A DNA stretch of 64,000 nt from an uncultured beta proteobacterium. GTDB taxonomy: Bacteria > Pseudomonadota > Gammaproteobacteria > Burkholderiales > SG8-39. The stretch lies in assembly GCA_963719995.1 (NCBI GenBank), contig CAVRDW010000005.1:576100-640099 (forward strand). Direction: 5' to 3'. A model generated the notes under the pieces. That model saw only the letters and a program-made list of their open reading frames with translations, was not told the DNA's origin and did no database searches. A program made the position numbers and the translations under genes. Below, in pieces: positions 7,604 through 54,654 of the stretch (the stretch's first letter is position 1; each line of letters opens with the position of its first letter).

Positions 7604-7611
7604 GATTCCAG

Positions 7612-7672
7612 GGGCCGAAAATTGGGGTCAGGGCCGAATTAATCTTGCGAGAAATAATTCGGCCCTGACCCC
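7612..7672 (-). terminator. rho-independent terminator candidate after the MlrC-like gene (perfect 18-bp stem)
   Basis: GGGGTCAGGGCCGAATTA (7624..7641) is perfectly complementary to TAATTCGGCCCTGACCCC (7655..7672). The stem begins 4 nt after the stop at 7677..7679 and is followed on the minus strand by AATTTTCGG. Confidence 0.6.
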
Positions 7673-7676
7673 GATT

Positions 7677-9146: not shown

Positions 9147-9220
9147 GGCGGTGAGGGCGCTGCGAGGCAAGAATACCAAGTCTCCCATGCTAGGATGCCC
9201 CGCCAAATGGATAAGCCCGC

Positions 9221-10189
9221 ATGAAAGCCGCGTTGTTTCGCTGGGCAGCTGCCGCATGTTGCCTTGCGGCATTCGCCACCGCGCAGGCGCAGACCTTCCC
9301 GTCGAAGCCCGTGCGCATCGTCGTCAATTTCCCGCCGGGCGGCGCGGCCGACCAGATCGCGCGCCCGCTCGGCGCGGCGTTGCAGGAGAAGCTCGGCCAG
9401 CCTTTCATCGTGGAGAACAAGCCAGGCGCCAACGGCCACATCGGGGTCACCGAGGTGGCCAAGCAGCCCGCCGACGGCTACACCCTGCTGATGTCCTCGG
9501 GGGGTGCCATCACGGTGAACGGTCAGCTCAACCCGGCGATCGAACCCAACCCGATGAAGGCGCTCGAGCCCGTCGCGCCGGCCGCGGTGGTGAGCGTGTA
9601 CCTCGTGGTAAAGCCGGCGCTCCCGGCAAACACGATTGCGGAATTCGTCGCGCACGCGCGCGCCAATCCGGGGAAGCTCAACTACGGCTCGCCCGGTACG
9701 GGCAGCTCGCCGCACCTCGCCGGCGAGATGTTCAATAGCGCGGCCAAGGTGAAGACCACGCACGTGCCCTACAAAGGCGCGGCGCCGGTGATCACCGACC
9801 TGCTGGGTGGCCAGATCGACTTCACCTTCGATCCGGGCGTCGGCCTCCAGCACGTGAAGGCCGGCAAGCTCCGGCTCCTCGCCGTGGGCAGCCCGAAACG
9901 CCACCCCGCCTACCCGGATATCCCGACCGTCGGCGAGGCGCTCGGCGCCGAATTCGACGCCGACACGGTGTTCGGGCTCTACGCGCCCACCGGCACGCCG
10001 AAAGAGGTCCTCGCGCTGCTCAACCGCGAGATCAACGCCGCACTGCAGACCGCCGCGCTGCGCGAGCGCATGGCAGCGATCGCGGCACAGGGGCTGAGCC
10101 TCACGCCGGAAGCCTTTGCCGCGCGCAACGCATCCGAGTACCAGCGCATGGGCGCGCTGATCCGCGAGACCAGCCTGAGCGCCAAGTAG
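9221..10189 (+). CDS. Bug-family TctC-like substrate-binding protein
   Basis: Signal peptide, then FPSKPVRIVVNFPPGGAADQIAR...ENKPGANG...ADGYT...HVPYKGAAP. Confidence 0.9.
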   Translation: MKAALFRWAAAACCLAAFATAQAQTFPSKPVRIVVNFPPGGAADQIARPLGAALQEKLGQPFIVENKPGANGHIGVTEVAKQPADGYTLLMSSGGAITVNGQLNPAIEPNPMKALEPVAPAAVVSVYLVVKPALPANTIAEFVAHARANPGKLNYGSPGTGSSPHLAGEMFNSAAKVKTTHVPYKGAAPVITDLLGGQIDFTFDPGVGLQHVKAGKLRLLAVGSPKRHPAYPDIPTVGEALGAEFDADTVFGLYAPTGTPKEVLALLNREINAALQTAALRERMAAIAAQGLSLTPEAFAARNASEYQRMGALIRETSLSAK

Positions 10190-21546: not shown

Positions 21547-22431
21547 CTAGAAGCAGGAAAACGTCACCGGCACGCCTTCGCCGTCGACGGGGCTGTGGCC
21601 GAAGCCGATCTGGCCGCTGCCGCGCAGCATCAGCTCCTCGCGCCGCAGCACCACCACCTCGGCCTCGCCGGTGAACCGCACCCAGGTGCCATTGGAGCTG
21701 TGGTCGACGAGCACGAACTTGTCGCGCCGCCGCTCCACGCGCGCATGCAGGCGCGAGGCCTTGCGGTCGCCCACCACGACGTCGCAGGCGCCGTCGCGCC
21801 CGAGGGTGAGTTCGCCGGGCCCCTCGAAGCGCCAGCTGCGGCCCTCGTAGGCCAGGGCGAGGCTCGCGGCGCGGCTGTGATCGAGCCGGGTGCTGAGCGC
21901 GGTGAGATCGTCGCTGTCCTGCCAGAGGAATTCGTAGATCATGACCGCGTGGCGCTTGCCCTTCACCGGCACGCCGTCCAGCTTGCGCGCCCGCTCGGCC
22001 AGCGCGGGCGAGAGCCGGGCCACGGTGTCCGCCGTGGTGATGATCTGCCCGTTCTTGGCGAGGCCCGCGACGCGGGCCGCCAGGTTCACGGTGTCGCCGA
22101 ACAGGTCCCCGGCATTCTCCAGCACGGACCCGAAGTGGCAGCCGATGTGGATGCCGAGAGCTGGCGCGTCCGGCTCGAGCTGCTCGGCGGTCTTCTCCTG
22201 CATCAGGCGCGAGGCGCGCAGCGCGGCATCCGCCGTCTCGAACATGCACATCGCGCCGTCGCCCGCGGTCTTGATCACCCGGCCGCCGCACTCGGCGCAC
22301 ACCCGCGAGAGCATCGTCATCGTGCGGCCCACGCGCGCCAGGGCCTCATCGTCGCCGAGGGTCTCGTAGAGGCGTGTGCTGCCGCTGATGTCGACGAACA
22401 GGACGGCGCAGTTCGCGTGACTGGGTGACAT
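21547..22431 (-). CDS. class III adenylate/guanylate cyclase fused to a C-terminal FHA domain
   Basis: Cyclase motifs: VLFVDISGSTRL, KTAGDGAMCMF and GDTVNLAARV. The FHA pattern is LTLGRDGACDVVVGDRKASRLHARVERRRDKFVLVDHSSNGTWV. Confidence 0.9.
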   Translation of the reverse strand: MSPSHANCAVLFVDISGSTRLYETLGDDEALARVGRTMTMLSRVCAECGGRVIKTAGDGAMCMFETADAALRASRLMQEKTAEQLEPDAPALGIHIGCHFGSVLENAGDLFGDTVNLAARVAGLAKNGQIITTADTVARLSPALAERARKLDGVPVKGKRHAVMIYEFLWQDSDDLTALSTRLDHSRAASLALAYEGRSWRFEGPGELTLGRDGACDVVVGDRKASRLHARVERRRDKFVLVDHSSNGTWVRFTGEAEVVVLRREELMLRGSGQIGFGHSPVDGEGVPVTFSCF

Positions 22432-22512
22432 AAGTAACCGGGCCTTGGGTGGCCGCCCCGCAGTCTAAGGGAAACCGCGGCCGTGAATGCCCTGTCGCAG
22501 GCGCGTGCTCGA

Positions 22513-22542
22513 TTGACAGCGTTTCCTCGCGACGCCTAGTAT
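22513..22542 (+). promoter_or_regulatory. sigma70-like promoter candidate for the FecR-like/DUF3365-HAMP/STK operon
   Basis: A perfect TTGACA (22513..22518), an 18-nt spacer and TAGTAT (22537..22542), about 85 nt upstream of the 22627 ATG. Confidence 0.4.
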
Positions 22543-22626
22543 CCAAGCGCTCGAAGCCCTTGATCTTGCGGGGCGCTCGGGCACTGGGCGGTGCCGCCGG
22601 ACTGGGGGAAGGGGAACCGCGTGCGA

Positions 22627-23517
22627 ATGGTGCAACAGGGGCGCTGGGCGCTGGCGCTGCTCGCCTGGCCGTGGGCCGCCGCCGCGGCGGACCCGATGGT
22701 GACCGTCACTCTGCTCGAGGGGCCCACGACGCTCGTTCGCGGCGTGCTGCGCTACGCGCTCGCCGAGGGCGTGCGCCTGCAGCCCGGCGACATCCTCGAG
22801 GTGAGCGACAAGGGCCTCGCAGAGCTGGAGTTCACCGATGGCGTCGCCCTGGCCCTGGGCCCGAAGACCCGCGTGCTGGCGCTGTCGGTGCCCCGCGGCA
22901 AGCCGGCGCCGGGCGATTTCTATGTGACGCAGGGTGCGCTCAAGCTCGCCGGCGTGAAGCAGGGCGCGCGCCTGCGCGTCGCGACGCCCTTGCTCACGCT
23001 GCAAGCCGCGGAAGGCACCGTGGTGATGGCGCTCGGCGGCGCGGACGCATCGGTCTTCGTGGAGGCTGGCGAAGCGCGCGTGGCCGGGTCGGGCGCCGCG
23101 GGCACGGCGCCGGTGCGCCTCAAGAGCGGTGACTTTTATACTGGCGACGACAAGAAGGGCAGCGTGGCCGCGCGCCCCTCGTCGGCATTCATCGACGCGC
23201 TGCCCAAGGCGTTCCTCGACCCGCTGCCCTCGCGCATCGCGCGCTACGGCGACCGCCAGGTGCAGCCGCGGCGGCTGGAGCCCGTCAAGTACGCGGAGGT
23301 CGAGACCTGGCTCAAGGCGCCGCCCGAGATCCGCCGGCGCATGCCCGCGCGCTTCCAGTCGCGCGCGGCCGACCCGGCGTTCCGCGCCGCCCTGATCGAG
23401 AACCTCAAGTTCCATCCGGAGTGGGATCCGATCCTGTTTCCGGAGAAGTACCTGCCGAAGGAAACCGAAGCCGCGCCCGGCACTGCCGCGCCGCCACGGC
23501 CGGCGGACAAGCGCTGA
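22627..23517 (+). CDS. secreted FecR-like domain protein
   Basis: Met 13 of ORF 22591..23517 follows a GGGGAAGGGGAA purine tract. The signal is MVQQGRWALALLAWPWAAAAA. The FecR-like segment is LLEGPTTLVRG...GVRLQPGDILEVSDKGLAELEFTDGVALALGPKTRV. Confidence 0.65.
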   Translation: MVQQGRWALALLAWPWAAAAADPMVTVTLLEGPTTLVRGVLRYALAEGVRLQPGDILEVSDKGLAELEFTDGVALALGPKTRVLALSVPRGKPAPGDFYVTQGALKLAGVKQGARLRVATPLLTLQAAEGTVVMALGGADASVFVEAGEARVAGSGAAGTAPVRLKSGDFYTGDDKKGSVAARPSSAFIDALPKAFLDPLPSRIARYGDRQVQPRRLEPVKYAEVETWLKAPPEIRRRMPARFQSRAADPAFRAALIENLKFHPEWDPILFPEKYLPKETEAAPGTAAPPRPADKR

Positions 23518-23539
23518 CGGCAACGTAAGGAGCCTCGCC

Positions 23540-24415
23540 ATGAGACTGGTCGTCAAGTTCAACTTGGTGTTCCTGTTCGTGTTCCTCATCGGCCTCGCCG
23601 CGGCGGGCTACGTCTCCGACCAGCTGCTGCAGAAGAACGCGCGCGACGAGATCGTGCTCAACGCGCGCCTGGTCATGGAGTCGGCGCTCGCCACCCGCGC
23701 CTACACCTCGACGCAGGTGGGGCCGCTGCTGCAGACGCAGATGAAATACAAGTTCCTGCCGCAGTCGGTGCCCGCCTACTCCGCGACCGAGGTCTTCAAC
23801 GGCCTGCGCAAGTCATTTCCCGATTACGCCTACAAGGAAGCCACGCTCAACCCCACCAACCCGAGCAACCGCGCCAACGACTGGGAGGCCGACATCGTCC
23901 ACCAGTTCCGCAACGCCGCCGACAAGCCTGAGGTGGTGGGCGAGCGCGACACCCCGAACGGCAGGTCGTTCTTCATCGCCCGGCCGATCCAGATCAAGCA
24001 GGAGTCCTGCCTGTATTGCCACTCGACGGTCGACGCGGCGCCCAAGACGCTGGTGGAGCGCTACGGGCCGGCCAACGGCTTCGGCTGGAAGCTGAACGAG
24101 GTGATCGGCGCGCAGATCGTCTCCGTGCCGACCGAAGTGCCGATCGCGCGCGCCAACGCGGCGTTCAAGACCTTCATGGTGTCGCTCACCGTGGTGTTCG
24201 GCTTCATCTTCGTCGCGCTCAACCTGATGCTGTGGTTCATGGTCATCCGCCCGGTCACGCGGCTGTCGAAGTTCGCCGACGCGGTGAGCCAGGGCGAGAA
24301 CCTGGATGCGTCCGACTTCCCGGTCGCCAGCCGGGACGAGATCGGCGTGCTCACGCAGTCCTTCAACCGCATGAAGAAGAGCCTGGTGCAGGCGATGAAG
24401 ATGCTCGAGGGCTGA
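23540..24415 (+). CDS. DUF3365 (haem c-binding, CxxCH) periplasmic sensor domain - TM - HAMP protein with no output domain
   Basis: N-terminal TM helix, periplasmic domain with CLYCH, second TM (FMVSLTVVFGFIFVALNLMLWFMVI) and a HAMP segment (RPVTRLSKFADAVSQG...EIGVLTQSFNRMKKSL). The protein ends 10 aa later. Confidence 0.75.
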   Translation: MRLVVKFNLVFLFVFLIGLAAAGYVSDQLLQKNARDEIVLNARLVMESALATRAYTSTQVGPLLQTQMKYKFLPQSVPAYSATEVFNGLRKSFPDYAYKEATLNPTNPSNRANDWEADIVHQFRNAADKPEVVGERDTPNGRSFFIARPIQIKQESCLYCHSTVDAAPKTLVERYGPANGFGWKLNEVIGAQIVSVPTEVPIARANAAFKTFMVSLTVVFGFIFVALNLMLWFMVIRPVTRLSKFADAVSQGENLDASDFPVASRDEIGVLTQSFNRMKKSLVQAMKMLEG

Positions 24416-24430
24416 GGCGCCCCGACCCGG

Positions 24431-25948
24431 ATGACGAAGCGCAAACCGCCCGCAGTTCCCGCGCAGCTCGGCAAGTACACCATCTCGGAGGTCCTCGGCA
24501 AAGGGGCCATGGGGGTCGTCTACAAGGGTTTCGATCCCCACATCCGGCGCACCGTCGCACTCAAGACCATCCGCAAGGACCTGGTGGACGACGAGCAGGA
24601 GGCGACGCTCCTCGCCCGCTTCCACAACGAGGCCCAGGCCGCCGGCCGGCTGTCGCATCCGGGCATCGTCGGCGTGTACGAGTGGGGCGAGGAAGGCGAC
24701 GTCGCCTTTCTCGCCATGGAGTACGTCGAAGGCAACAGCCTGCGCGAGTACTTCGTGCGCGGCACGCGCTTCGACGGGCGGGACATGGTGAGCGTCATGG
24801 TGCAGGTGCTCGACGCCCTGCAGCACGCGCACGAGCAGGGGGTGTGGCACCGCGACATCAAGCCGGCCAACATCATCGTGATGAAGAACGGCAAGCTGAA
24901 GATCGCGGATTTCGGCATCGCGCGCATCGACTCCTCCAACCTCACGCAGATCGGCGCGATCATGGGCACCCCCGGCTACATGTCGCCCGAGCAGTACAGC
25001 GGGGCGAGCGTGGACTGGCGCGCCGACCTCTTTTCGGCGGGCGTCGTCATGTACCAGTTGCTGACGGGCGAGCGCCCGTTTACCGGCAGCGCCGAGTCCA
25101 TCGCCTACAAGGTCTGCCACGAGAAGCCCCGGCTGCCCTCCGAAGTGGTTCCCGCGCGCTGCAGCGAGCAGTTCGACGCGGTGGTGATGGCGGCGCTCGC
25201 CAAGAAGCCGGAGGACCGCTTCCAGGATGCGCGCGCGTTCCGCGACGCGGTGCTCGACGCGCACGCGGCCCCGGCGAACCCGACGCTGTCGGAGGAGACG
25301 ATCCTCAACGTGCCGGTGCGCTCAACGGCCCAGCTCGAGCCTTCGCTGCCCTCGCAGCCGTCGCGGCCCTCGCAGCCTCCACAGGCTTCGCAGCCATCAC
25401 AGCCGTCGCAGCCGTCGCAGCCGTCCCAATCGTCGCAGCCCCCGGGCTCCACGCCCGGCTCGCAGGCGCCCGCCGCGAAGACCGTGCCGCCCGCCGGCTG
25501 GGAGGCCGCGCCGCTCAAGCAGATCGAGCAGCAGCTGGCGCGCTACGTCGGCCCGGTCGCCAGGGTCCTGGTGCGCCGCGGCGCCAGTCAGACGACGGAT
25601 GTCGACCAGCTGTACCGCATGCTCGCGGAGAACCTGGCGAACCCCGATGAGCGCACGGCGTTTCTCGCCGGGCGGAAACCATCCGCCGCTGCGGGGGATC
25701 CAGGCGAAGCAGGCGCAACCGCAGGGGCGCGTGCGCCCGCGACCGGCCTCGCCGGGCAACTGACGCCCGAGGCCGTCGAACAGGCGACCAAGCGGCTCGC
25801 CGCCTATCTCGGCCCCATCGCGAAGGTCGTTGCAAAGAAGGCGGCGACGCAGGCAAGCGGCCGCCGCCACTTCTACCTGCTGCTCGCCGACAACCTCGCC
25901 AGTCCCAACGACCGGGCCCAGTTCCTGCACGACGTCGGCGTCGAATAG
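24431..25948 (+). CDS. Ser/Thr protein kinase with a PSQ-repeat linker and two repeated C-terminal ~60-aa modules
   Basis: GKGAMGVVY, VALK, HRDIKPANIIV and KIADFG. The linker is PSLPSQPSRPSQPPQASQPSQPSQPSQPSQSSQPP. The repeated modules are LKQIEQQLARYVGPVARVLV...LAENLANPDERTAF and VEQATKRLAAYLGPIAKVVA...LADNLASPNDRAQF. Confidence 0.9.
   Translation: MTKRKPPAVPAQLGKYTISEVLGKGAMGVVYKGFDPHIRRTVALKTIRKDLVDDEQEATLLARFHNEAQAAGRLSHPGIVGVYEWGEEGDVAFLAMEYVEGNSLREYFVRGTRFDGRDMVSVMVQVLDALQHAHEQGVWHRDIKPANIIVMKNGKLKIADFGIARIDSSNLTQIGAIMGTPGYMSPEQYSGASVDWRADLFSAGVVMYQLLTGERPFTGSAESIAYKVCHEKPRLPSEVVPARCSEQFDAVVMAALAKKPEDRFQDARAFRDAVLDAHAAPANPTLSEETILNVPVRSTAQLEPSLPSQPSRPSQPPQASQPSQPSQPSQPSQSSQPPGSTPGSQAPAAKTVPPAGWEAAPLKQIEQQLARYVGPVARVLVRRGASQTTDVDQLYRMLAENLANPDERTAFLAGRKPSAAAGDPGEAGATAGARAPATGLAGQLTPEAVEQATKRLAAYLGPIAKVVAKKAATQASGRRHFYLLLADNLASPNDRAQFLHDVGVE
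25341..25443 (+). repeat. imperfect tandem 9-bp (CCGTCGCAG, Pro-Ser-Gln) coding repeat inside the kinase gene
   Basis: About 11 successive CCn-TCG-CAG-like units are visible in the DNA and translate to (PSQ)n. Confidence 0.85.
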
Positions 25949-25978: not shown

Positions 25979-27238
25979 ATGAAGCGCGCCTTCCACGGCT
26001 GGAAGATGGTCGCCGCCGGCGGCGGCATCCAGTTCCTGCAGGCGAGCTTGCTGCTGCAGTCCTTCGGCGCCTACGTCGCGGTGCTGCGCGACGCCTTCGG
26101 CTGGTCGAAGACCGAGCTGTCCTTCGCCGCGGCGCTGCACCAGATGGAAGCCGCCGTCATCGGACCGATCCTGGGCTGGATCATCGACCGCTTTGGCGCA
26201 CAGGGCGTGATCCGCATGGGAGTCACCGTGCTCGGCATCGGCTTCATGCTGCTGTCGCAGATCGAGAGCCTGATCGCGTTCTACGGCGCGTTCATCGTCA
26301 TCGCGCTGGGCTCGAGCATGTGCGGCTTCATGCCGCTCAACGTCTCGCTCATCTACTGGTTCGAGAAGAAGCGCGCGCGCGCCCTCTCGACGCTGGGCCT
26401 CGGGCTCGCGCTCGGCGGCATCGCGGTGCCACTGGTCGCCTGGTGCATGACCCAGTACGGCTGGCGCGCGACCGCCTTCGGCTCGGGCGTGCTCATCCTG
26501 CTCGCCGGCCTGCCGCTTTCCTTCGTCATCCGCGGCCGGCCGCACCTCTACGGGGAGTTCGTCGACGGCGAGCCGCTGCCCGCGACGCCGAGCAAGATGC
26601 AGGCGATGCACAAGACAGACGCCACGCGCGACTTCACCGCGCGCGAGGCGCTGCGCACGCCCGCGTTCTGGCTGCTCTCTCTCGGGCACGGCTTCGCCCT
26701 GCTCGTGGTGAGCGCGGTCAACGTGCACGCCATCACGCACCTCAAGGAGGGCCTCGGCTACTCCGTGGAGGCGGCGGCGCTCTACATCATGCTGATGACG
26801 ATCGCGCAGATCGGCGGCATCGCCATCGGCGCGGCCACCGGCGACCGCTTCGACAAGCGCCTGATCTGCGCCGGGTGCATGGTGATGCACATGGCGGGAT
26901 TGCTCTGCCTCACCTACGCGACGAGCGTGACGATGATCGTCGGTTTCGCGCTGCTCCACGGCGTGGCCTGGGGCCTCAGGGGGCCGTTCATGCAGGCGAT
27001 CCGCGCCGACTACTTCGGCGTCAGCGCGATCGCATTGATCCTGGGGCTATCCTTCACGATCGTGGTGCTCGGCCAGATCGGCGGGCCGATGATCGCCGGC
27101 TTCCTTGCGGACGTGACAGGCAACTACCGCAGCGGCTTCACGGTGCTCGCGCTGCTGGCCGGGCTGGGATCGGCGTTCTTCCTGCTGGCGAAGAAGCCGC
27201 CGCGGCCGGCGCTGGCAGCCGGCAACAAGGGGCAGTGA
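25979..27238 (+). CDS. MFS transporter
   Basis: 419 aa with about 12 hydrophobic helices and an MFS-type loop motif (GWIIDRFGAQG). Confidence 0.8.
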   Translation: MKRAFHGWKMVAAGGGIQFLQASLLLQSFGAYVAVLRDAFGWSKTELSFAAALHQMEAAVIGPILGWIIDRFGAQGVIRMGVTVLGIGFMLLSQIESLIAFYGAFIVIALGSSMCGFMPLNVSLIYWFEKKRARALSTLGLGLALGGIAVPLVAWCMTQYGWRATAFGSGVLILLAGLPLSFVIRGRPHLYGEFVDGEPLPATPSKMQAMHKTDATRDFTAREALRTPAFWLLSLGHGFALLVVSAVNVHAITHLKEGLGYSVEAAALYIMLMTIAQIGGIAIGAATGDRFDKRLICAGCMVMHMAGLLCLTYATSVTMIVGFALLHGVAWGLRGPFMQAIRADYFGVSAIALILGLSFTIVVLGQIGGPMIAGFLADVTGNYRSGFTVLALLAGLGSAFFLLAKKPPRPALAAGNKGQ

Positions 27239-27326
27239 CGCCCGGGCTGCGGTTTGTGCGGTGCGTCTTTGCACTGCCGGTCAATCCGTATAAGGTTTGC
27301 GCTCCGCGAATGAGGAGGACTTCAAG

Positions 27327-27779
27327 ATGATCCGCCTGTCCATCAACGGCAAGACCCACAACGTCGACGTCGATCCGAACACGCCCCTGCTCTGGGCGAT
27401 TCGCGAACAGGTCGGACTGACCGGCACGAAGTACGGCTGCGGTGTCGCGCAGTGCGGCGCCTGCACCGTGCACGTGGACGGCGCGCCGGTGCGCGCGTGC
27501 GCGCTGCCGGTCAGCGCCGCCGCAGGCAAGAAGATCACCACCATCGAGGGGCTCGCCGCGGGCGGCAAGCTGCACAAGGTGCAGCAGGCCTGGATCGAGC
27601 ACGAGGTTCCGCAATGCGGCTACTGCCAGTCCGGCATGATCATGGCCGCCGTGGCGCTGCTGAAGAGCAATCCCAAGCCCACCGACGCGGATATCGACGC
27701 CGCGATGACCAACATCTGCCGCTGCGGCACGTTCCAGGAAGTGCGCCAAGCGATTCACGCTGCCGCCGCCAAGGCGTAA
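27327..27779 (+). CDS. iorA: (2Fe-2S)-binding small subunit of an IorAB/aldehyde-oxidase-type molybdenum hydroxylase
   Basis: MIRLSINGK..., with Cys clusters [12 protein letters not shown] and CGYCQSG...CRCGT. A GAGGAGG RBS lies upstream of ATG 27327. Confidence 0.9.
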
Positions 27780-27791
27780 GGGGGAACGACC

Positions 27792-29981
27792 ATGTCCGCC
27801 ATTCCGAACATCAGCCGCCGTTCCTTCATCGTCGGTTCCGCCGCCGCCGCGGGTGGCCTCGCCATCGGCCTGCGCCTGCCGCCCTTCGGCCCCGCCGTCG
27901 TGCGTGCGGCCGACGGCGCACCGGAGATCAATGCCTGGGTCGTGATCCGGCCCGACGACACCGTCGTCATCCGCATGGCCCGCTCCGAAATGGGCCAGGG
28001 CACGATCACCGGCCTCGCGCAGCTCGTCGCCGAGGAGCTGGAGTGCAACTGGTCGAAGATCGTCTACGAGTACCCGACCCCGGGCGAGAGCGTGAAGCGC
28101 AAGCGGGTCTGGGGCGACTTCTCCACCGGCGGCAGCCGCGGCATCCGCATGTCGCACGAGTACGTGAGGAAGGGAGGCGCTGCCGCGCGCATGATGCTCG
28201 TGCAGGCGGCCGCCAACCAGTGGAAGGTGCCCGTGTCCGAGTGCACGGCGTCCAACAGCATCATCACGCACGGGCCTTCCAAACGCCGCATCTCCTACGG
28301 CAAGGTGGCGGAGGCCGCCGCGAAGCTCGAAGCGCCGAAGGACGTGAAACTGAAGGACCCGAAGGAGTGGAAGGTCATCGGCAAGCCGGTCAAGCGCCTG
28401 GACACCACCAACAAGGTGAACGGCAAGCAGGTCTACGGCTTCGACTTCAAGCTCCCGGGCATGCTCAACGCCGCGATCACGGAATGCCCAGTGTTTGGCG
28501 GCAAGGTGAAGAGCTTCGACGCCGCGCGCGTGGCGAACCTCAAGGGCGTGAAAAAGGTGCTGCAGGTCGGGGATTCGGCGGTCGCGGTGGTCGCCGATCA
28601 TTGGTGGAACGCGAAGAGGGCGCTCGACCAGCTGCCGGTGGTGTGGGACGAGGGCCCCAACGCCAAGGTCTCCAGCGCCACCATCGCCGAGCAGCTGAAG
28701 GCGGGGCTCGACGCCGAGCAGGCGTTCGTCGGCCAGACGGAGGGTGACGCGAAGGCGGCGCTCGCCGCCGCGGCGAAGAAGATCGAGGCGGTCTACTCAT
28801 ATCCCTTCCAGAACCACGCCTGCATGGAGCCGATGAACGCGACGGCGCGCTACACGCCCGACAAGTGCGAGGTGTGGGTGCCGACGCAGGACGGCGAACG
28901 ATCATTCGCGGCCGTGCTGTCGGCCTCGGGGCTGCCGGCGGACAAGTGCGAGGTCTACAAGATCAACCTCGGCGGCGGCTTCGGCCGGCGCGGCGCCTTC
29001 CAGGACTACGTGACGCAGGCAGTGCGCATCGCGAAGGAGATGCCGGGCACACCGGTGAAGCTGCTCTGGTCGCGCGAGGAAGACATGGTGCAGGGCCGCT
29101 ACCACCCGGTGATGCAGTGCAAGCTGGTCGGCGGCTTCGACAGCGGCAACAACCTCACCGGCCTGCACATGCGCCTCTCGGGCCAGTCGATCCTTTCCGT
29201 GGTCTTCCCGGCGGTCGTAGAGCAGCAGAAGGGGCGCGACCCGCTCGTCTTCCAGGGCGTGTTCGAGTCCGGCGAGCACGCAATCAGCTACAACTTCCCG
29301 AACACGCTGATCGACCATGCCATGCGCAACACGCACGTGCCGCCGGGCTTCTGGCGCGGCGTCAACATCAACCAGAACGCCATCTTCATCGAGTGCTTCA
29401 TGGACGAGCTGGCGGAAGCCGCCGGCCAGGATCCGGTCGAGTTCCGCCGCAAGTTCATGGGCAGGCACCCGCGCAACCTCGCCGTGCTGAACGCGGTGGC
29501 CGAGCGCATCGGCTGGACCAAGCCCGCGCCGGCCGGCATGTTCCGCGGCGTCGCGCAGATGAAAGCCTTCAACAGCTTCGTCGCGGCAGCCTGCGAGATC
29601 TCGGTCAAGGACGGCAACAAAGTGAAGGTGCACCGCATCGTTGCCGCCACCGACTGCGGCTACGCCGTCAACCCGGCGCAGATCGAGCGCCAGGTGTCGG
29701 GCTCCTTCGTCTACGGCCTGTCGGCCCTCTTCATGCAGGAGTGCACGGTGAAGGACGGCGCCATCGAGCAGAAGAACTTCGACACCTACCAGTCGATGCG
29801 CATCGCGCAGATGCCGAAGGTGGAGACGATCATCCTGCAGGGCGGCGGCGACACCTGGGGCGGCATCGGCGAGCCGACCATCTGCGTCGCGGCGCCGGCG
29901 GTGCTGAACGCCTTCTACCGGGCCACGGGCAAGCGCATCCGCAGCGCGCCGCTGAAGAACCACGGCATCGAGCTGGTGTGA
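27792..29981 (+). CDS. iorB: molybdopterin-binding large subunit (isoquinoline 1-oxidoreductase beta / aldehyde dehydrogenase type), Tat-exported
   Basis: Twin-arginine signal SRRSFIVGSAAAAGGLAIG. 729 aa with EMGQGT, the IorB-typical layout and a C-terminal GIGEP motif. Confidence 0.85.
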   Translation: MSAIPNISRRSFIVGSAAAAGGLAIGLRLPPFGPAVVRAADGAPEINAWVVIRPDDTVVIRMARSEMGQGTITGLAQLVAEELECNWSKIVYEYPTPGESVKRKRVWGDFSTGGSRGIRMSHEYVRKGGAAARMMLVQAAANQWKVPVSECTASNSIITHGPSKRRISYGKVAEAAAKLEAPKDVKLKDPKEWKVIGKPVKRLDTTNKVNGKQVYGFDFKLPGMLNAAITECPVFGGKVKSFDAARVANLKGVKKVLQVGDSAVAVVADHWWNAKRALDQLPVVWDEGPNAKVSSATIAEQLKAGLDAEQAFVGQTEGDAKAALAAAAKKIEAVYSYPFQNHACMEPMNATARYTPDKCEVWVPTQDGERSFAAVLSASGLPADKCEVYKINLGGGFGRRGAFQDYVTQAVRIAKEMPGTPVKLLWSREEDMVQGRYHPVMQCKLVGGFDSGNNLTGLHMRLSGQSILSVVFPAVVEQQKGRDPLVFQGVFESGEHAISYNFPNTLIDHAMRNTHVPPGFWRGVNINQNAIFIECFMDELAEAAGQDPVEFRRKFMGRHPRNLAVLNAVAERIGWTKPAPAGMFRGVAQMKAFNSFVAAACEISVKDGNKVKVHRIVAATDCGYAVNPAQIERQVSGSFVYGLSALFMQECTVKDGAIEQKNFDTYQSMRIAQMPKVETIILQGGGDTWGGIGEPTICVAAPAVLNAFYRATGKRIRSAPLKNHGIELV

Positions 29982-30382
29982 GGGGATTGGCGCTCGCCCT
30001 GGTCACGGCTGCCGCGACCAGCGCTTTCGCCAGCGACGAAATGCCCGCTTCGCTGACCGGCGCCAAGGGCGATCCGGTCCGCGGACGGGCGATCGTCGCC
30101 AGCCGCCAGGCGGGGCTTTGCCTGCTTTGCCACAGCGGCCCGTTTCCCGAGGAGCGCTTCCAGGGCGAGCTCGCCCCCGACCTGAGGAGCGCAGCGCGCT
30201 TCACCGAGGGCCAGATCCGCATGCGCATCGTGGATCCGCGCAAGGCCAATCCCGAGAGCATCATGCCGGCGTATTTCCGGACCGAGGGACTGACTCGCGT
30301 CGCGCCCGCGTATCGCGGCAAGACGATTTTCAGCGCCGAGCAAGTGGAGGATGTGGTGGCCTACCTGATGACGCTGCGATGA
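29978..30382 (+). CDS. soxX: SoxX-like monohaem c-type cytochrome
   Basis: The GTG start overlaps the iorB stop (GTGTGA). The signal peptide is VRGLALALVTAAATSAFA. The rest is GDPVRGRAIVASRQAGLCLLCHSGPFPEERFQGELAPDL...IMPAYFR...VEDVVAYLMTLR (CxxCH). Confidence 0.75.
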   Translation: MRGLALALVTAAATSAFASDEMPASLTGAKGDPVRGRAIVASRQAGLCLLCHSGPFPEERFQGELAPDLRSAARFTEGQIRMRIVDPRKANPESIMPAYFRTEGLTRVAPAYRGKTIFSAEQVEDVVAYLMTLR

Positions 30383-30849
30383 CCACGCGTCGACAGTTCC
30401 TGGTGCTCGCCGGGGGCGCGCTCGCCGGCGGCGCGGCGCAGGCGCAGCTGCCGCCCAACATCGAGGCGCTGCGCAAGGCGGCGCTCGCGGAAGCCGTGCG
30501 CAAAGTGACGGGCGGCGCCCAGGTGCGCGCCGGCAGGGTGAAGCTCGACGTGCCGCCGCTCATCGACAACGGCAACACGGTGCCGGTCTCGGTCGAGGTC
30601 GAGAGCCCGATGACCGCGATCGACCACGTCAAGGCGATCCACGTCTTCACCGAGAAGAACCCGCAGCCCTATGTCATCAGCGCGCATCTCGGGCCGCGCG
30701 CCGGCCGCGCGCGGATCACCACGCGCGCGCGCATCGCCGACACGGGGACGGTGCTGGCGATCGCGCAAATGAGCGACGGCTCGTTCTGGTCCGACAGCGT
30801 CAACGTGGTGGTGACGCTCTCTGCCTGCCTGGAAGACGGGTTGATCTAG
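30379..30849 (+). CDS. soxY: SoxY-like sulfur/thiol carrier protein with a non-canonical C-terminal arm (…TLSACLEDGLI instead of …GGCGG)
   Basis: ATGA overlap with soxX. The Tat signal is MTTRRQFLVLAGGALAGGAAQA. The SoxY core is VKLDVPPLIDNGNTVPVSVEV...AIHVFTEKNPQP. A single Cys lies 7 residues from the end. Confidence 0.75.
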   Translation: MTTRRQFLVLAGGALAGGAAQAQLPPNIEALRKAALAEAVRKVTGGAQVRAGRVKLDVPPLIDNGNTVPVSVEVESPMTAIDHVKAIHVFTEKNPQPYVISAHLGPRAGRARITTRARIADTGTVLAIAQMSDGSFWSDSVNVVVTLSACLEDGLI

Positions 30850-31170
30850 ATGACCCGCGTCGTCGTCAACCTGCCGCAGCGCGCGCGGCGCGGCGAGATC
30901 ATCGAGATCCGCACGCTTGCCGGGCACAGCATGGAGACCGGCTTTCGCCGCACGCAGCTCGGCGAGCTGATCCCGCGCAACATCATCACGCGCTTCACCT
31001 GCAGCTACAACGGCGTGGAGGTCTTCAGCGCCGACCTGCACCCGGCGGTTGCGGCCAATCCGCTGATCGCCTTTAGCACCGTCGCCACTGAGAGCGGCAC
31101 GCTGGAGTTCCGCTGGAGCGGCGACAACGGCTTCAGCGCCACGCACACCGCTTCGATCACCGTAGAGTGA
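30850..31170 (+). CDS. soxZ: SoxZ-like carrier complex partner
   Basis: The ATG directly abuts the soxY TAG. It has RARRGEIIEIRTLAGHSMETG...ITRFTCSYNGVEVFSADL; 106 aa. Confidence 0.8.
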   Translation: MTRVVVNLPQRARRGEIIEIRTLAGHSMETGFRRTQLGELIPRNIITRFTCSYNGVEVFSADLHPAVAANPLIAFSTVATESGTLEFRWSGDNGFSATHTASITVE

Positions 31171-31940
31171 GCGTCCGCGTCCATTGGCTGCTCCTCGTCT
31201 GCGCGCTCGCCTCGGCCGCCCGGGCAGAGATCCCGCTCGCCGAGCGGCGTTCGGGCTACACGGACATGAGCCCCCAGACACGCGCCATGCAGGACGACGA
31301 CGCCACCAACCCGGCGACGCTCTGGGTTCTGGACGGCGAAGCGCTATGGGCGAAGAAGGCCGGTGCCGCGGCGCTTGCCTGCGCCGACTGCCACCGCGAC
31401 GCGCGCGAGAGCATGAAGGGCGCGGCGGCGCGCCATCCTGCCTACGACGCGGTGACGGGGACGCTCGTCAATCTCGAGGGGCGCATCAACCGCTGCCGTG
31501 CCGAGCGCCAGAAGGCAACGCCGCTCGCCTACGAGAGCCGCGAGCTGCTTGCGCTCACCGCGTTCGTCGCGCGGCAGTCGCGCGGGCTGCCGATCGCAGT
31601 CGAGTCGAGCGCGCGCACGCAGGCGTTTCTCGAGGCGGGCCGCGCCGCGTTCCGGCGCCGCCAGGGCCAGCTCGATCTCGCCTGCGTGCACTGCCACGAC
31701 GAGCGCGCGGGCAAGCGGCTCGCCGGCACGCTGATTCCGCAGGGCCATCCCACCGCCTACCCCGTCTATCGCCTCGAGTGGCAGGCCGTGGGGTCGCTGC
31801 ACCGTCGCCTGCGCAATTGCCTGGTGGGCATCCGCGCCGAACCCTATGCGCTCGGCGCGCGCGAGTACGTCGAGCTCGAGATGTACCTGATGTGGCGCGC
31901 GCGCGGCATGCCGCTCGAGGCGCCTGGCGTGCGGCCCTGA
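31167..31940 (+). CDS. soxA: SoxA-like dihaem c-type cytochrome
   Basis: GTGA overlap with soxZ and a signal peptide. Two CxxCH motifs (CADCH, CVHCH) plus a distal RLRNC Cys candidate for the haem ligand. Confidence 0.8.
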   Translation: MSVRVHWLLLVCALASAARAEIPLAERRSGYTDMSPQTRAMQDDDATNPATLWVLDGEALWAKKAGAAALACADCHRDARESMKGAAARHPAYDAVTGTLVNLEGRINRCRAERQKATPLAYESRELLALTAFVARQSRGLPIAVESSARTQAFLEAGRAAFRRRQGQLDLACVHCHDERAGKRLAGTLIPQGHPTAYPVYRLEWQAVGSLHRRLRNCLVGIRAEPYALGAREYVELEMYLMWRARGMPLEAPGVRP

Positions 31941-40031: not shown

Positions 40032-40045
40032 TTGATTTGCGTCAA
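40032..40045 (+). promoter_or_regulatory. Crp/Fnr-family-like box TTGAT-N4-GTCAA upstream of coxM
   Basis: A 9/10 match to TTGAT-N4-ATCAA, centred ~64 nt upstream of the coxM ATG. It is embedded in the dyad CGCAAACTTGATTTGCG. TGATTTGCG is repeated at 40067..40075. Confidence 0.35.
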
Positions 40046-40101
40046 CGAGGCGGACTCTTTGTGCGATGATTTGCGCGCAACTAGAGGAGGAGAGACTCGC
40101 A

Positions 40102-40968
40102 ATGATTCCAGCCGCATTTGATTACCATGCGCCCCGTTCGGTCGCCGATGCGATCAAGCTGCTCGGCCAGCTCGGCCCCGATGCCAAGCTGCTCGCCGGC
40201 GGCCACAGCCTGCTGCCGATGATGAAGCTGCGCTTTGCGCAGCCCGCCCACCTCATCGACCTCGGCCGCATCGCCGAGCTGCGCGGCATCTCGCAGGCGG
40301 GCAACGAAATCCGCATCGGCGCCATGACCACCGAGCACGACCTGCTCAACTCGAAGCTGCTGGCCGAGAAGGCGCCGCTGCTGGTCGAGGGCGCCGCCTG
40401 GATCGCCGATCCGCAGGTGCGCTACAAGGGAACCATCGGCGGCGACATCTCGCACGGCGATCCGGGCAACGACCACCCGGCGCTGATGATCGCCCTGGAT
40501 GCGTCCTTCGTGCTGACGGGCCCGAAGGGCGAGCGCGTCGTCAGGGCCGACGGCTATTTCCTCGGCCTGTATTCGACGCAGCTGGCGGCCGACGAGGTCC
40601 TCACGCAGATCCGCATCCCGGTTCCGCCCGCGGGCAGCGGCTGGTCCTACCAGAAGCTCAAGCGCAAGACCGGCGATTTCGCCACCGCCGCGACCGCGGT
40701 GATGCTGCAGATGAAGGGCAGGAGCGTCGCCAAGGCGGCGATTGCCCTCACCAACGCCGGGCCGACCGTACTCAAGGTGCGCGACGCCGAAGCGTATCTC
40801 GCCGGCAAGGAACTCAACGACGCCAGCCTGAACGAGGCGGCGCGCCTGGCGATGAAGATCTGCAATCCGACACCGGACCAGCGCGGCGATGCCGACTACA
40901 AGCGGGCGATGTGCGGCGAGATGACGCGGCGCGCCCTGCAGGCCGCGCACGCGCGCGCCAAGGGCTGA
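40102..40968 (+). CDS. coxM: CO dehydrogenase-type FAD-binding medium subunit
   Basis: [33 protein letters not shown]...[15 protein letters not shown]; 288 aa; first gene in M-S-L order. Confidence 0.85.
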
Positions 40969-40993
40969 GAGAGGAATCGGGGGAGCGACGAAC

Positions 40994-41476
40994 ATGGCGA
41001 CTACACACAAGGTGTCATTCAAGCTCAACGGCAAGCCGGTGGAGGCGACGGTCGAGGCCCGCGAGCTGCTGATCTACACGCTGCGCGAGAAGCTCGCGCA
41101 TACCGGGCCTCACATCGGCTGCGAGACCTCGCATTGCGGCGCCTGCACGGTGGATCTCAACGGCATGTCGGTCAAGTCCTGCACCGTCCTGACGGTGCAA
41201 TGCGAGGGCGCCGAGATGACCACCATCGAAGGCATGGAACAGGGCGGCGCGCTGCATGCGCTGCAGCAGGCATTTCACGAGGAGCACGGCCTGCAGTGCG
41301 GCTACTGCACGCCCGGCATGATCACGCGCGCCTACCGCCTGCTGAAGGAGAACCCGAATCCGAGCGAGCAGGACATCCGCAAGGGCATCGCCGGCAACCT
41401 GTGCCGCTGCACGGGTTACCAGAACATCGTCAAGGCGGTGCAATCCGCGGCGAAGAAGCTCGCGGCCGCGCGCTAA
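40994..41476 (+). CDS. coxS: CO dehydrogenase-type [2Fe-2S] small subunit
   Basis: [11 protein letters not shown] and CGYCTPGM...CRCTGY cluster motifs; 160 aa. Confidence 0.9.
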
Positions 41477-41502
41477 CTCACAAGACCCACCGGAGAATCC
41501 TC

Positions 41503-43917
<2,415 letters not shown>

Positions 43918-43941
43918 GCCAGGGAGAATGACGGCGCGGCG

Positions 43942-44526
43942 ATGAAGGTCCAGCTCAACCGGACATTTCCGCTGCCCGGCTCGGCCGATGCGGCCTGGGC
44001 GCAGCTGCAGGACATCGCCGCCGTCGCCGCTTGCATGCCCGGGGCGAAGATCACCGAGCGCGTGGACGAGACGCACTACAAGGGCACGGTCAGCGTGAAG
44101 GTCGGACCCGCGAGCCTCTCGTTCCGCGGCGACATCGAAGTCAAGAGCGTCGATGCGTCCGCGCGCACGCTGCGCCTGTTCTCCAAGGGCACCGACACGA
44201 CCGGCGGCTCGGCCGCGTCCATGGACCTGACGGCGCGCATCGATCCGGCCGGCGCGAACGCGTGCACCCTGGTCGGCGAAAGCGAGGTGTCCATGAGCGG
44301 CAAGGCCGCGGCCTTCGGCTCGCGCCTGATGGGACCGGTGTCCGACCAGGTGATCAGCCAGTTTGCGGCCAACTTCGCCGCGCGCCTGCAGGCGATGCCC
44401 GCGCAGGGCGCCCCGGCGCAGGCGCAAGCCGCCGCCGCGCCGGCGCCCGAGGCAAGGCCGCTGAACGCGCTGAGCCTGATGTGGGCCGTCGTCAAGGGCT
44501 GGTTCCGCTCGGTGTTCGCAAAGTGA
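43942..44526 (+). CDS. coxG: CoxG-like SRPBCC-family protein
   Basis: MKVQLNRTFPLPGSADAAWAQLQDIAAVAACMPGAKI...YKGTVSVKVGPASLSFRG, located after coxL. Confidence 0.8.
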   Translation: MKVQLNRTFPLPGSADAAWAQLQDIAAVAACMPGAKITERVDETHYKGTVSVKVGPASLSFRGDIEVKSVDASARTLRLFSKGTDTTGGSAASMDLTARIDPAGANACTLVGESEVSMSGKAAAFGSRLMGPVSDQVISQFAANFAARLQAMPAQGAPAQAQAAAAPAPEARPLNALSLMWAVVKGWFRSVFAK

Positions 44527-44539
44527 TGAGCGCGAAGAC

Positions 44540-45445
44540 ATGAGCTCGCAGCGCGCACTCGATATCGCCGGCTTGCAGCGGGAACTGGCGCGCGCCGGCT
44601 ACATCGCCGAGCCCAGCCTCGCGGCGGCGCTGCTGCTCATGCGCGATCTGGCCCGCCCGCTGCTGCTCGAGGGCGACGCCGGCGTGGGCAAGACGGAGGT
44701 CGCCAAGGTGCTCGCCGAGATCAACCGCACGCGGCTGATCCGGCTGCAGTGCTACGAAGGCCTCGACGCGCATGCCGCGATGTACGAGTGGAACTACCAG
44801 CGCCAGCTGCTGGCGATCAAGCTGCTCGAGCACGACGAGCACGCAGGCGCGAAGGACCTCGCGCAGCGCGAGCAGGACATCTTCTCGGAGCGCTACCTGC
44901 TCAAGCGCCCGCTGCTCGAGGCGATCTCGGGCGAGCGTCCGCCGGTGCTGTTGATCGACGAGATCGACCGCGCCGACGCGGCCTTCGAGGCGTACCTGCT
45001 CGAGCTGCTGTCGGACTTCCAGATCACGATTCCCGAGTTGGGCACCGTGCGCGCCACCAGCCGTCCGCTGGTGGTGATCACCTCCAACGGCACGCGCGAG
45101 CTGTCCGACGCGCTGCGGCGGCGCTGCCTGTACCAGTACATCGACTATCCCGATTACGAGAAGGAGCTCGCCATCGTGCGCCAGAAGGCGCCGGAGGCCG
45201 AGGCGAAGCTGGCGCAGCAGATCGTCGCCTTCGTGCAGGGCGTGCGGCGCATGGAACTGCAGAAGAAGCCCGGCGTCGCGGAGACGCTGGACTGGACCGC
45301 CGCGCTGCTGCGCCTGGGATTCACGACCATCGACATCAACGGCGCCGAGCGCATCATGGACACGCTGAGCGCCCTGATCAAGACGCGCGACGACCGCGTG
45401 GCCTTCCCCCGCGAAGTGGTCGCGCGCCTCGCGGCGGCCAGTTGA
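44540..45445 (+). CDS. coxD: CoxD-like MoxR-family AAA+ ATPase
   Basis: Walker A LLEGDAGVGKTE and Walker B VLLIDEIDRA; 301 aa; located after coxG. Confidence 0.85.
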   Translation: MSSQRALDIAGLQRELARAGYIAEPSLAAALLLMRDLARPLLLEGDAGVGKTEVAKVLAEINRTRLIRLQCYEGLDAHAAMYEWNYQRQLLAIKLLEHDEHAGAKDLAQREQDIFSERYLLKRPLLEAISGERPPVLLIDEIDRADAAFEAYLLELLSDFQITIPELGTVRATSRPLVVITSNGTRELSDALRRRCLYQYIDYPDYEKELAIVRQKAPEAEAKLAQQIVAFVQGVRRMELQKKPGVAETLDWTAALLRLGFTTIDINGAERIMDTLSALIKTRDDRVAFPREVVARLAAAS

Positions 45446-51122: not shown

Positions 51123-51482
51123 CTAGGGAGACTCTGGTCTATTCGCGCGGTGGCGCGTTGCGGCCGGAACGCGGCGCCGGCTAGGCGCAAGGCCGCAGCG
51201 ATATGTCGATATCGCAAGGCCGAGCAACAACGCCGGCGCCCGTGTCATCGCGCTATCGTAAGCCAACCGTCGAGGACTTCCGGCCGCAACCCGAAGGCGG
51301 CGAGGCCTTTGCCGTGAACCCCCGCCTCGCGGCCTCGCCGCCTGGAGGGACGGGGTGATTTTCGCGCATGGCTTCGCCATCGGCCGCCTTGTGGACGTCA
51401 AGTACACGGCGGCGTCCGCTGTCTCGCCCTGCACGAAAATCGCCACCGTCGCGCACGCGGGAATAGATCAGAGTCTCCCTAG
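51123..51482 (-). mobile_element. 360-bp MITE-like element, copy B (inverted relative to copy A)
   Basis: Same length and the same termini (CTAGGGAGACTCTGGTCTATTCGCGCG ... CGCGGGAATAGATCAGAGTCTCCCTAG). The internal sequence is the reverse complement of 34938..35297 with scattered substitutions. Confidence 0.8.
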
Positions 51483-51865
51483 CTCAGCTGCCAGGCGATC
51501 ATCAGCACGCCCGCGATCGACACGAGCCAGCTCCCCGTGCGCAGCCAGGGCAGGCCGCCGATGTAGCACACCGCGTAGGCGACGCGCGCCCAGAAGAAGA
51601 GCTTCGCGCCGAGCAGCGTCGTGGGGTTCGTCGTGCCGGTCACCACCACCGCGAGCACCACGGCGGCGAACAGCACCAGGTTCTGCGCCATGTTGTCGTT
51701 CGCGCGCACCGCGCGGCCGCCCCAGCCGGGCAGCTCGGGCAGGTTGGCGCGGTTGCCGACCGTCGCCATCAGGCCGGAGTGGCTGTACAGCGCCACGACG
51801 GTGATGAGCATGTGCACGATCGCGAGCAGGACGGACCAGGTGAGATACATGATTTCCGGCTTCAT
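51479..51865 (-). CDS. MAPEG-family membrane protein
   Basis: Met 7 of ORF 51479..51883; 128 aa; four helices; RAVRANDNMAQNLVLF and FFWARVAYAVCY motifs. The TAG stop lies inside the terminal CTAG of MITE copy B. Confidence 0.7.
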   Translation of the reverse strand: MKPEIMYLTWSVLLAIVHMLITVVALYSHSGLMATVGNRANLPELPGWGGRAVRANDNMAQNLVLFAAVVLAVVVTGTTNPTTLLGAKLFFWARVAYAVCYIGGLPWLRTGSWLVSIAGVLMIAWQLS

Positions 51866-51924
51866 GAAGGCCTCCCTTCCCAAGAGTCGATGGGGTGCGG
51901 CTTGCTACGGCGGCTACAGTATCA

Positions 51925-54033: not shown

Positions 54034-54117
54034 GCGGGTTGCCTCCGGGCGCGATACTGAACCTGTCGTGTGGCCCGCGCACGATCTAATTTTCAGATAT
54101 CTGGCGTTTGGCGCACT

Positions 54118-54561
54118 TCAGCGCTCGAGCGCCTTCGGCCAGTTGCCATCGGCCTTGCGGATGTAGCCGGGCACGTCCTTCAGCCAGTCCGCGCGCACGC
54201 CCAGGCTGTAGTTGAGATAGAGCTTGCCGCCCACCACGCTCCAGGCCTCCGGAACCGTGGAAACGGTGTAGCCGTTCGCGACGCCATAAGCGCAGTAGCC
54301 GCCGTATTGCGGCGCGAACTTGTCGGGTGCGACGGCGAAGGCGTCGCGATTCTGCGCGCTCGCGAAACGCCAGGTCGCGCCCTTCCACTGGTGGGTGAAC
54401 TGCCGCGACCCTTCGACCGGCTTGCCTTCGGTGAAGAAGGCGACCGGGTCGTAGCCGCGGATGGCCGCGCCGACCCAGGAGGAGTAGACCTCGGACTTCT
54501 GCGCCAGCACGGGCACAGCGAATGCGAGCACGGCGGCGAGGAACAGGATTCGGGCAGTCAT
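54118..54561 (-). CDS. YHS-domain-containing periplasmic protein
   Basis: Signal peptide, then AIRGYDPVAFFTEGKPVEG...WKGATWRFASAQNRDAF...APQYGGYCAYG...GGKLYLNY. Confidence 0.75.
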   Translation of the reverse strand: MTARILFLAAVLAFAVPVLAQKSEVYSSWVGAAIRGYDPVAFFTEGKPVEGSRQFTHQWKGATWRFASAQNRDAFAVAPDKFAPQYGGYCAYGVANGYTVSTVPEAWSVVGGKLYLNYSLGVRADWLKDVPGYIRKADGNWPKALER

Positions 54562-54654
54562 GGCTCGGTCTCCGGCGGGCGTTTCCCGTTCGTCGCAGGA
54601 CGGGACGCGGCCTTACTGCGCGAACCGCGCACCGGCCGCAGTTGCCGCCCTGGC

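Follow-up and report, generated by a model that had tools for sequence, protein, structure and literature searches.

We show here that, across phyla, SoxY-like carrier proteins ending in an A-A-C-type arm go together with a molybdenum hydroxylase rather than with SoxB or SoxCD. The gene from which the analysis starts, soxY', lies at 30379..30849 on the forward strand of a 64,000-nucleotide stretch of DNA from an uncultured beta proteobacterium (contig CAVRDW010000005.1 of assembly GCA_963719995.1, positions 576,100 to 640,099). We call this whole stretch the window and number positions from its first letter. The gene is the fourth in an operon of the order iorA, iorB, soxX, soxY', soxZ, soxA, in which iorA and iorB encode the two subunits of a molybdoenzyme of the xanthine-oxidase family. 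SoxY-type carriers are central to a major bacterial route of inorganic sulfur oxidation, and authentic SoxY binds sulfur on the cysteine of an invariant C-terminal GGCG(G) motif. That motif is absent from the window protein, whose ending, SACLEDGLI, is kept in its homologues.

The carrier and its C-terminal arm

How does the soxY' protein end? The first-pass annotation, made from the sequence alone, had noted a SoxY-like core, a Tat (twin-arginine translocation) signal and an ending without GGCGG, its lone cysteine seven residues from the terminus; each of these observations holds. Read in frame with the ATG at 30379, the forward-strand codons at 30814..30849 (ACG CTC TCT GCC TGC CTG GAA GAC GGG TTG ATC TAG) specify the arm T146-L-S-A-C150-L-E-D-G-L-I156 followed by the stop codon. 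The 156-residue product has the SoxY fold (Pfam PF13501, 108.5 bits) and the C-terminus ...VVVTLSACLEDGLI; C150 is its sole cysteine and the seventh residue counted from the C-terminus. The start chosen, which gives the N-terminus MTTRRQFLVLAGG..., overlaps the stop codon of the upstream soxX-like gene, and the equivalent position is used by all soxY' homologues. The twin-arginine motif reads T-R-R-Q-F-L; at 16.4 bits the Tat model TIGR01409 is borderline (cut-off 16.7).

To which family does the protein belong? The NCBIfam model TIGR04487, ‘SoxY-related AACIE arm protein’ (SoxY_para_1), matches it at 196.5 bits against a cut-off of 172 (E = 1.8e-58), residues 4–152 aligning with model positions 2–146 of 146. 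The true-SoxY model of the GGCGG type, TIGR04488, reaches 108.8 bits, under its cut-off of 125. The comparison with curated families that the annotation had called for thus favours the SoxY-related family over SoxY. The RefSeq name that it had put forward is correct, and S-A-C-L-E, which it had assigned to the AACIE class, fits the pattern [AS]-A-C-[LIVT]-[ED]. We conclude that the soxY' protein is a genuine, ordinary member of TIGR04487 and not a new kind of system. It shares with the family the full-length match above the cut-off, the arm pattern, a Tat signal and a SoxZ alongside. Compared with the name-giving AACIE ending, it has Ser at −2, Leu at +1 and more residues after the cysteine (tail EDGLI). 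Orthologues encoded on plasmids of Neorhizobium and Methylobacterium, lying in the same gene order, are named ‘SoxY-related AACIE arm protein’ by the PGAP annotation pipeline.

How general is this arm? A search of 1.84 billion cluster representatives returned 1,940 SoxY-like clusters. Among the best 150, examined as 50%-identity representatives, roughly 100 carry an arm of the AAC type and roughly 10 one of the GGCG type. Across the family the motif reads V-T-[LIV]-[AS]-A-C-[LIVT]-[ED] followed by 0–6 further residues. Around the cysteine of 102 AAC-type representatives, A or S occurs at −2 in 90%, A at −1 in 96%, L, I, V or T at +1 in 91% and E or D at +2 in 91%; from two to eight residues follow the cysteine, six of them in the window protein. 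An alignment of 55 diverse members leaves only M1, N94, P95, A149 and C150 invariant. Clustering separates three groups: that of the window (AACLE or SACLE with tails), the classical AAC[IV]E group and an AAC[IL]D group. The tail SACLE[DE]GLI is the mark of a betaproteobacterial soil clade. As a whole the AAC-arm family is large, and it is common in soil Burkholderiales, in Bradyrhizobium and other Hyphomicrobiales, and in Methylomirabilota.

Does C150 occupy the place of the SoxY carrier cysteine? With phmmer, VTLSAC150 of the window protein is aligned with VTIGGC of Paracoccus SoxY (2ox5, 2oxg). As judged from this alignment, C150 is positionally homologous to the carrier cysteine of canonical SoxY. 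An AlphaFold2 model built from the 55-sequence alignment has a mean pLDDT (predicted local distance difference test) of 90.7, and its best Foldseek matches are the same Paracoccus SoxY structures, 2oxg and 2ox5, at a target-normalised TM-score of 0.86 and a root-mean-square deviation of 2–2.8 Å. The last β-strand comprises residues 136–146; residues 147–156 are without regular structure, and confidence is low at the end of the arm (mean pLDDT 59 for residues 151–156). With an unstructured segment of low confidence after the last strand, C150 is therefore placed on a flexible C-terminal arm like that of SoxY. The acidic side chain at +2 would take the place of the free terminal carboxylate of the canonical GGCGG arm; it may thereby preserve the negative charge while permitting a variable extension. 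With canonical SoxY (TIGR04488; Paracoccus pantotrophus SoxYZ, PDB 2ox5/2oxg) the window protein has in common the fold, the homologous cysteine after the last strand, the SoxZ partner, the Tat signal, and SoxX and SoxA alongside. It differs in lacking the GGCGG ending, in falling below the TIGR04488 cut-off, and in belonging to a cluster that has a xanthine-oxidase-family molybdoenzyme instead of SoxB and SoxCD.

Could the ending be an artefact, whether of frameshift, of mis-assembly or of an erroneous stop codon? We found no evidence in favour of this, although the split iorB of a related contig, described below, indicates that assembly errors do occur in the data source. Among 5.8 billion proteins searched we found 7,607 relatives, and tails were compared in the best 120 (77–99% identity). 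In 84 of these 120 independent homologues the tail is exactly VVVTLSACLEDGLI, identical over the last 14 residues; in the others it differs by one or a few residues, and almost all of the 120 end in VVVTLSACLE[DE]GLI. No identical copy of the window protein was found by exact look-up. The curated model covers residues 4–152 end to end. Since the soxZ-like gene begins at 30850, right after the TAG, no other frame can hold a hidden GGCGG ending. The shared tail and the soxZ start rule out a frameshift or sequencing artefact, and we put the chance of an artefact of any of the three kinds at practically nil. The alternative grouping that the annotation had raised, with non-carrier homologues lacking the cysteine, is likewise not what we see: the cysteine is invariant across the family. 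Measured against four relatives, the dN/dS (ratio of nonsynonymous to synonymous substitution rates) of soxY' is 0.24–0.30, which indicates that the gene is under purifying selection.

The AAC-type arm is tied to a molybdenum hydroxylase

If the arm is a family trait, does it travel with a particular enzyme? A genome scan, with one genome per species (GTDB), supplied 80 loci from betaproteobacterial metagenome-assembled genomes, from Bradyrhizobium, Xanthobacteraceae and other Hyphomicrobiales, and from Rokubacteria/Methylomirabilota; it rested on a narrow alignment, and its sample is biased to relatives of at least 55% identity. A scan of metagenomes with the classical AACIE subgroup as its seed supplied 80 more and partly offsets that bias. 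All loci were searched by tblastn with the six proteins of the window operon and two proteins of locus L028. Together they contain 167 AAC-type soxY' genes, and counts of upstream genes use the 87 with at least 5 kb upstream.

In 85 of these 87, iorA and iorB lie upstream on the same strand, and the linkage spans Betaproteobacteria, Alphaproteobacteria and Methylomirabilota. A small cytochrome c and a flavoprotein stand between iorB and soxX in 59 of the 87, the flavoprotein being by Pfam a flavocytochrome c sulfide dehydrogenase (PF21706, PF09242). soxZ is downstream of the carrier gene in every one of 98 loci and soxA in 94 of 98, and soxX adjoins it in 130 of 135. The gene set holds both for the classical AACIE subgroup, seen in the metagenomes, and for the subgroup of the window. 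The PGAP-annotated plasmids of Neorhizobium and Methylobacterium carry the same eight genes, that of the AACIE-arm carrier among them; the plasmid collection contained only three AAC-type records (one from Methylobacterium, two from Neorhizobium), the other inspected or annotated matches being canonical-type SoxY. For the AACID subgroup the representative, P0139, gave only contigs of 1–2 kb, and its context is known from second copies in three loci (L011, L012, L035).

Does the linkage hold when read from the enzyme? Starting from IorB, three of three orthologues (83–86% identity, on long contigs) were followed by soxX-like, soxY, soxZ and soxA genes in unrelated flanks. It follows that the conserved unit is the module and not the neighbourhood. 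Neither SoxB (query from L084) nor SoxC (query from L083; TIGR04555, 610 bits) had a tblastn match in the 64-kb window or in some 2 Mb of AAC-type loci, a search confined to the window and the sampled loci, with few canonical-SoxY loci for comparison. The SoxB query matched only the canonical loci L083 and L084, and the SoxC query only L083. The first-pass annotation had asked whether the arm co-varies with an adjacent IorAB-type enzyme and had supposed that a different arm implies different partner enzymes. The upstream counts answer the question in the affirmative; the supposition is supported by the same linkage, SoxB and SoxC occurring only in the few canonical-SoxY comparison loci.

Which parts of the module belong most closely together? 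Two loci (L047, L053) have iorAB-soxY'Z without soxXA. Three others (L011, L012, L035) have two iorAB-soxY'Z pairs with one shared soxXA, and the arm tails within them differ, for example AACLEELQ and TESACLDQS. A variant tandem form (L136) keeps soxX and soxA in its first set. That iorAB-soxY'Z sets can share soxXA or be without it suggests that the molybdenum enzyme and the carrier form the matched pair.

A different duplication was observed in nine loci of Xanthobacteraceae and other alphaproteobacteria (L034, L037, L039, L042, L044, L055, L056, L062, L077), where two different iorB genes stand in a row upstream of flavocytochrome c and soxX-Y'-Z-A, in most cases each with its own iorA before it. 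The first is 62–77% and the second 47–53% identical to the window IorB. One carrier may serve two molybdoenzymes in these loci.

In the window all six genes are on the forward strand. The iorA-like gene (27297..27779) encodes a small subunit with two [2Fe-2S] domains and no signal peptide (Pfam Fer2_2, 102 bits, and Fer2). After a gap of 12 nucleotides comes the iorB-like gene (27792..29981) for the molybdopterin-binding large subunit of the xanthine-oxidase family (Pfam MoCoBD_1/2; Tat model TIGR01409, 20.3 bits). The soxX-like gene (29978..30382), which has a GTG start, encodes a mono-haem cytochrome c with a CLLCH motif (TIGR04485, 71.3 bits, cut-off 61). Beyond soxY' lie the gene for the soxZ-like partner subunit (30850..31170; TIGR04490, 82.5 bits, cut-off 76; Pfam SoxZ, 93 bits) and the soxA-like gene for a di-haem cytochrome c (31167..31940; TIGR04484, 224.6 bits, cut-off 110). 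Along its entire length the window SoxA can be aligned with that of Rhodovulum (1h31), and both CxxCH motifs and the haem-ligand cysteine of ...RNC... are conserved. No specific NCBIfam equivalog cut-off was reached by IorAB, and ‘isoquinoline 1-oxidoreductase’, the name in JGI (Joint Genome Institute) records, is automatic. Four of the five junctions overlap or abut, as GTGTGA (iorB/soxX), ATGA (soxX/soxY'), TAGATG (soxY'/soxZ) and GTGA (soxZ/soxA); such an arrangement from iorB to soxA indicates co-translation. The six genes are one translationally coupled periplasmic module.

A contig whose carrier is 99% identical to the window protein (L168) has an irregular version of the upstream genes. 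Its iorB is called as two open reading frames of 407 and 262 residues and its soxX as a 53-residue stub (7410–9602 and 9843–10004 of that locus), either a pseudogene or a long-read assembly error. The copies of iorB and soxX in the window, unlike these, are intact.

Candidate functions of the module

What might such a module do? The best overall explanation, which we regard as probable though far from secure, is a Tat-exported AACIE carrier paired with SoxZ, with IorAB replacing SoxCD and SoxB and a cargo other than the usual one. Its first part, judged from motifs and gene order, is best explained by SoxY' being exported by the Tat pathway, pairing with the adjacently encoded SoxZ-like protein and presenting C150 on the flexible arm. 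The SoxXA-type cytochrome complex, which keeps the Cys-ligated active-site haem, would oxidatively attach a reduced sulfur nucleophile to C150. The IorAB-type molybdenum hydroxylase would then oxidise the tethered adduct, in place of canonical SoxCD and SoxB, and the c-type cytochromes would receive the electrons by way of the [2Fe-2S] subunit. The bulkier A-A-C-[LIVT]-[ED] arm would act as a docking determinant for the different partner, adapted to another active-site funnel. The cargo is unlikely to be thiosulfate processed in the ordinary manner, and a different cargo for the AAC arm, as the first-pass annotation had supposed, is plausible. The frequent presence of sulfide dehydrogenase genes, together with the intact active site of SoxA, favours sulfur chemistry.

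Might the arm instead carry an aldehyde or another carbonyl compound? The cysteine would then capture a periplasmic aldehyde as a thiohemiacetal for oxidation by IorAB, and SoxX and SoxA would serve mainly as electron-accepting cytochromes in place of the tri-haem subunit found in classical aldehyde dehydrogenases of three subunits. The structure closest to IorB in the PDB is indeed the large subunit of a membrane-bound aldehyde dehydrogenase (8gy3_C, E = 1.6e-70), with which the catalytic G-E-P glutamate is aligned, although identity is only moderate. Like the group of three-subunit aldehyde dehydrogenases and IorAB enzymes to which 8gy3 belongs, the window enzyme has [2Fe-2S] and molybdopterin subunits, a Tat signal on the large subunit and the catalytic glutamate. 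Unlike 8gy3, the window module has no tri-haem cytochrome subunit; where this usual third subunit is missing, soxX starts on the iorB stop codon. There is also a precedent for a SoxYZ-type carrier recruited to a non-Sox periplasmic dehydrogenase, namely the quinoprotein dehydrogenase-associated SoxYZ-like carriers of TIGR04557, which go with quinoprotein (alcohol) dehydrogenases. These differ in being fused SoxY–SoxZ proteins with another partner enzyme, and the match of SoxY' to their model is weak (61.6 bits, cut-off 140). On the other hand, SoxA keeps the Cys-ligated active-site haem, which is specialised for S–S bond formation, flavocytochrome c sulfide dehydrogenase genes are added in most loci, and known molybdenum aldehyde oxidoreductases need no thiol carrier. 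We therefore consider an aldehyde cargo quite improbable. Being encoded with a carrier protein and SoxXA sets the window enzyme apart from characterised members of the xanthine-oxidase family; we know of no characterised enzyme of the IorAB or aldehyde dehydrogenase type that is so encoded.

Has such a module been described before? Both the family, curated at NCBI, and the gene cluster, drawn in a paper of 2013, are already known. The ‘second sox cluster’ of Starkeya novella, Snov_1975-1982 (Kappler et al. 2013; PMC3797975), comprises a xanthine-oxidase-family molybdenum enzyme (two genes), flavocytochrome c, SoxX2, SoxY2, SoxZ2 and SoxA2; SoxB and SoxCD are absent from it. Its gene numbering fits the eight-gene order of the Xanthobacteraceae and Bradyrhizobium loci in our sample, whereas the operon in the window is the short form of six genes, lacking those for flavocytochrome c. 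The Bradyrhizobium loci have AACTE[ED]VI tails on their eight-gene module. The arm of SoxY2 is not commented on in the 2013 paper (PMC3797975). A survey of SoxY diversity in 2024 kept only sequences with a ‘GGC’ motif and so excluded the AAC-arm family (PMC11237559). Our literature search found no paper relating ‘AACIE’ to the SoxY-related family and nothing joining soxY or soxZ with iorA, iorB or aldehyde oxidoreductase; the family-wide linkage of arm and IorAB appears to be unreported in the searchable literature.

Could the module be a redundant isoform, that is, a diverged duplicate of the thiosulfate Sox system that is functionless or tunes thiosulfate oxidation through SoxB and SoxCD encoded elsewhere? 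SoxX, SoxZ and SoxA all pass the NCBIfam equivalog cut-offs of the true thiosulfate system. A complete sox locus is also present in S. novella (PMC3797975) and in Bradyrhizobium diazoefficiens (PMC5748708). Expression of the S. novella cluster was very low on glucose, methanol and thiosulfate, and its authors suggested that it has no functional significance (PMC3797975). In B. diazoefficiens, thiosulfate oxidation requires only soxY1, which belongs to sox locus I; soxY2 is dispensable, its mutant having no thiosulfate phenotype (PMC5748708). The low expression on thiosulfate and the dispensable soxY2 argue together against ordinary thiosulfate oxidation. Moreover, the arm motif, the cysteine and the iorAB linkage are kept across at least two phyla (IorB at 62–85% identity), the dN/dS given above is low, and SoxY' scores below the cut-off for true SoxY. 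A specific new motif and a specific new neighbour would not both be kept by a duplicate that was drifting, and we judge redundancy to be unlikely.

Several points weigh against the reading that we prefer, a carrier loaded by SoxXA and served by IorAB. To our knowledge no adduct has ever been observed on the arm cysteine of any family member, nor do we know of any xanthine-oxidase-family enzyme that takes a sulfur substrate tethered to a protein. The loci in our sample are related by phylogeny and were picked for their similarity to SoxY', and the counts given above are accordingly not independent events. Two close relatives (L001, L005) carry soxX-Y'-Z-A at the same chromosomal position without iorAB, so that IorAB is not strictly required beside the carrier; the adjacency is strong, not absolute. 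The L001 protein occurs again on a second contig (L170), which comes from the same soil sample as L168 (ENA ERZ25039502). These two are sister lineages that differ by the presence or absence of iorAB at one site, which corresponds to 25979–30382 of the window: L168 has MFS (major facilitator superfamily)-iorA-iorB-soxX, like the window, while in L170, whose carrier is 83% identical, the MFS gene is followed directly by soxX. Both have PPK2 and MFS genes on one side and TctCBA, pirin, flavodoxin and LysR genes on the other. The S. novella cluster was almost silent in all conditions tested, and perhaps has no functional role in the view of its authors (PMC3797975). Finally, that the S. novella and B. 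diazoefficiens SoxY2 proteins carry the AAC-type arm is inferred from the matching gene order and from the related Bradyrhizobium and Xanthobacteraceae loci.

A narrower proposal goes further than the overall explanation, and we advance it tentatively, as somewhat likelier to be wrong than right. SoxY'Z' would be the dedicated substrate carrier of a xanthine-oxidase-family molybdoenzyme, and the module of six to eight genes would be a widespread, SoxB- and SoxCD-independent periplasmic pathway by which soil bacteria oxidise a non-thiosulfate sulfur or organosulfur compound. If so, a molybdenum hydroxylase would for the first time be seen to use a substrate tethered to a protein; sulfane or polysulfide, thiocyanate and a volatile thiol are among the candidates. 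The linkage of arm and IorAB offers a concrete, testable hypothesis for the ‘second sox cluster’, unexplained since 2013. Were it confirmed, the chemistry of the xanthine oxidase family would become broader and models of the soil sulfur cycle would gain a pathway.

Other genes in the window

The operon is flanked upstream by an MFS transporter gene and downstream by TctCBA. We considered whether these transporters are parts of the system and rejected the idea, because the flanks vary among loci with the same six-gene module. Just upstream of the MFS gene, at 21547–25948, lies a signalling cluster with genes for an FHA-domain adenylate/guanylate cyclase (reverse strand), a FecR-like protein, a Tll0287-like/HAMP sensor and a Ser/Thr protein kinase. 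These genes also flank the locus in L168.

A second, unrelated cluster of the xanthine-oxidase/CO-dehydrogenase type occupies 40036–45445 on the forward strand. It encodes an FAD (flavin adenine dinucleotide)-binding subunit, a 982-residue molybdopterin subunit with a hammerhead domain, CoxG and an AAA ATPase. On the reverse strand, at 51925–54117, an open reading frame of 730 residues shows a strong third-position GC bias and matches no Pfam family; it is flanked by a MAPEG-family gene (51479–51904) and a YHS-domain gene (54118–54612).

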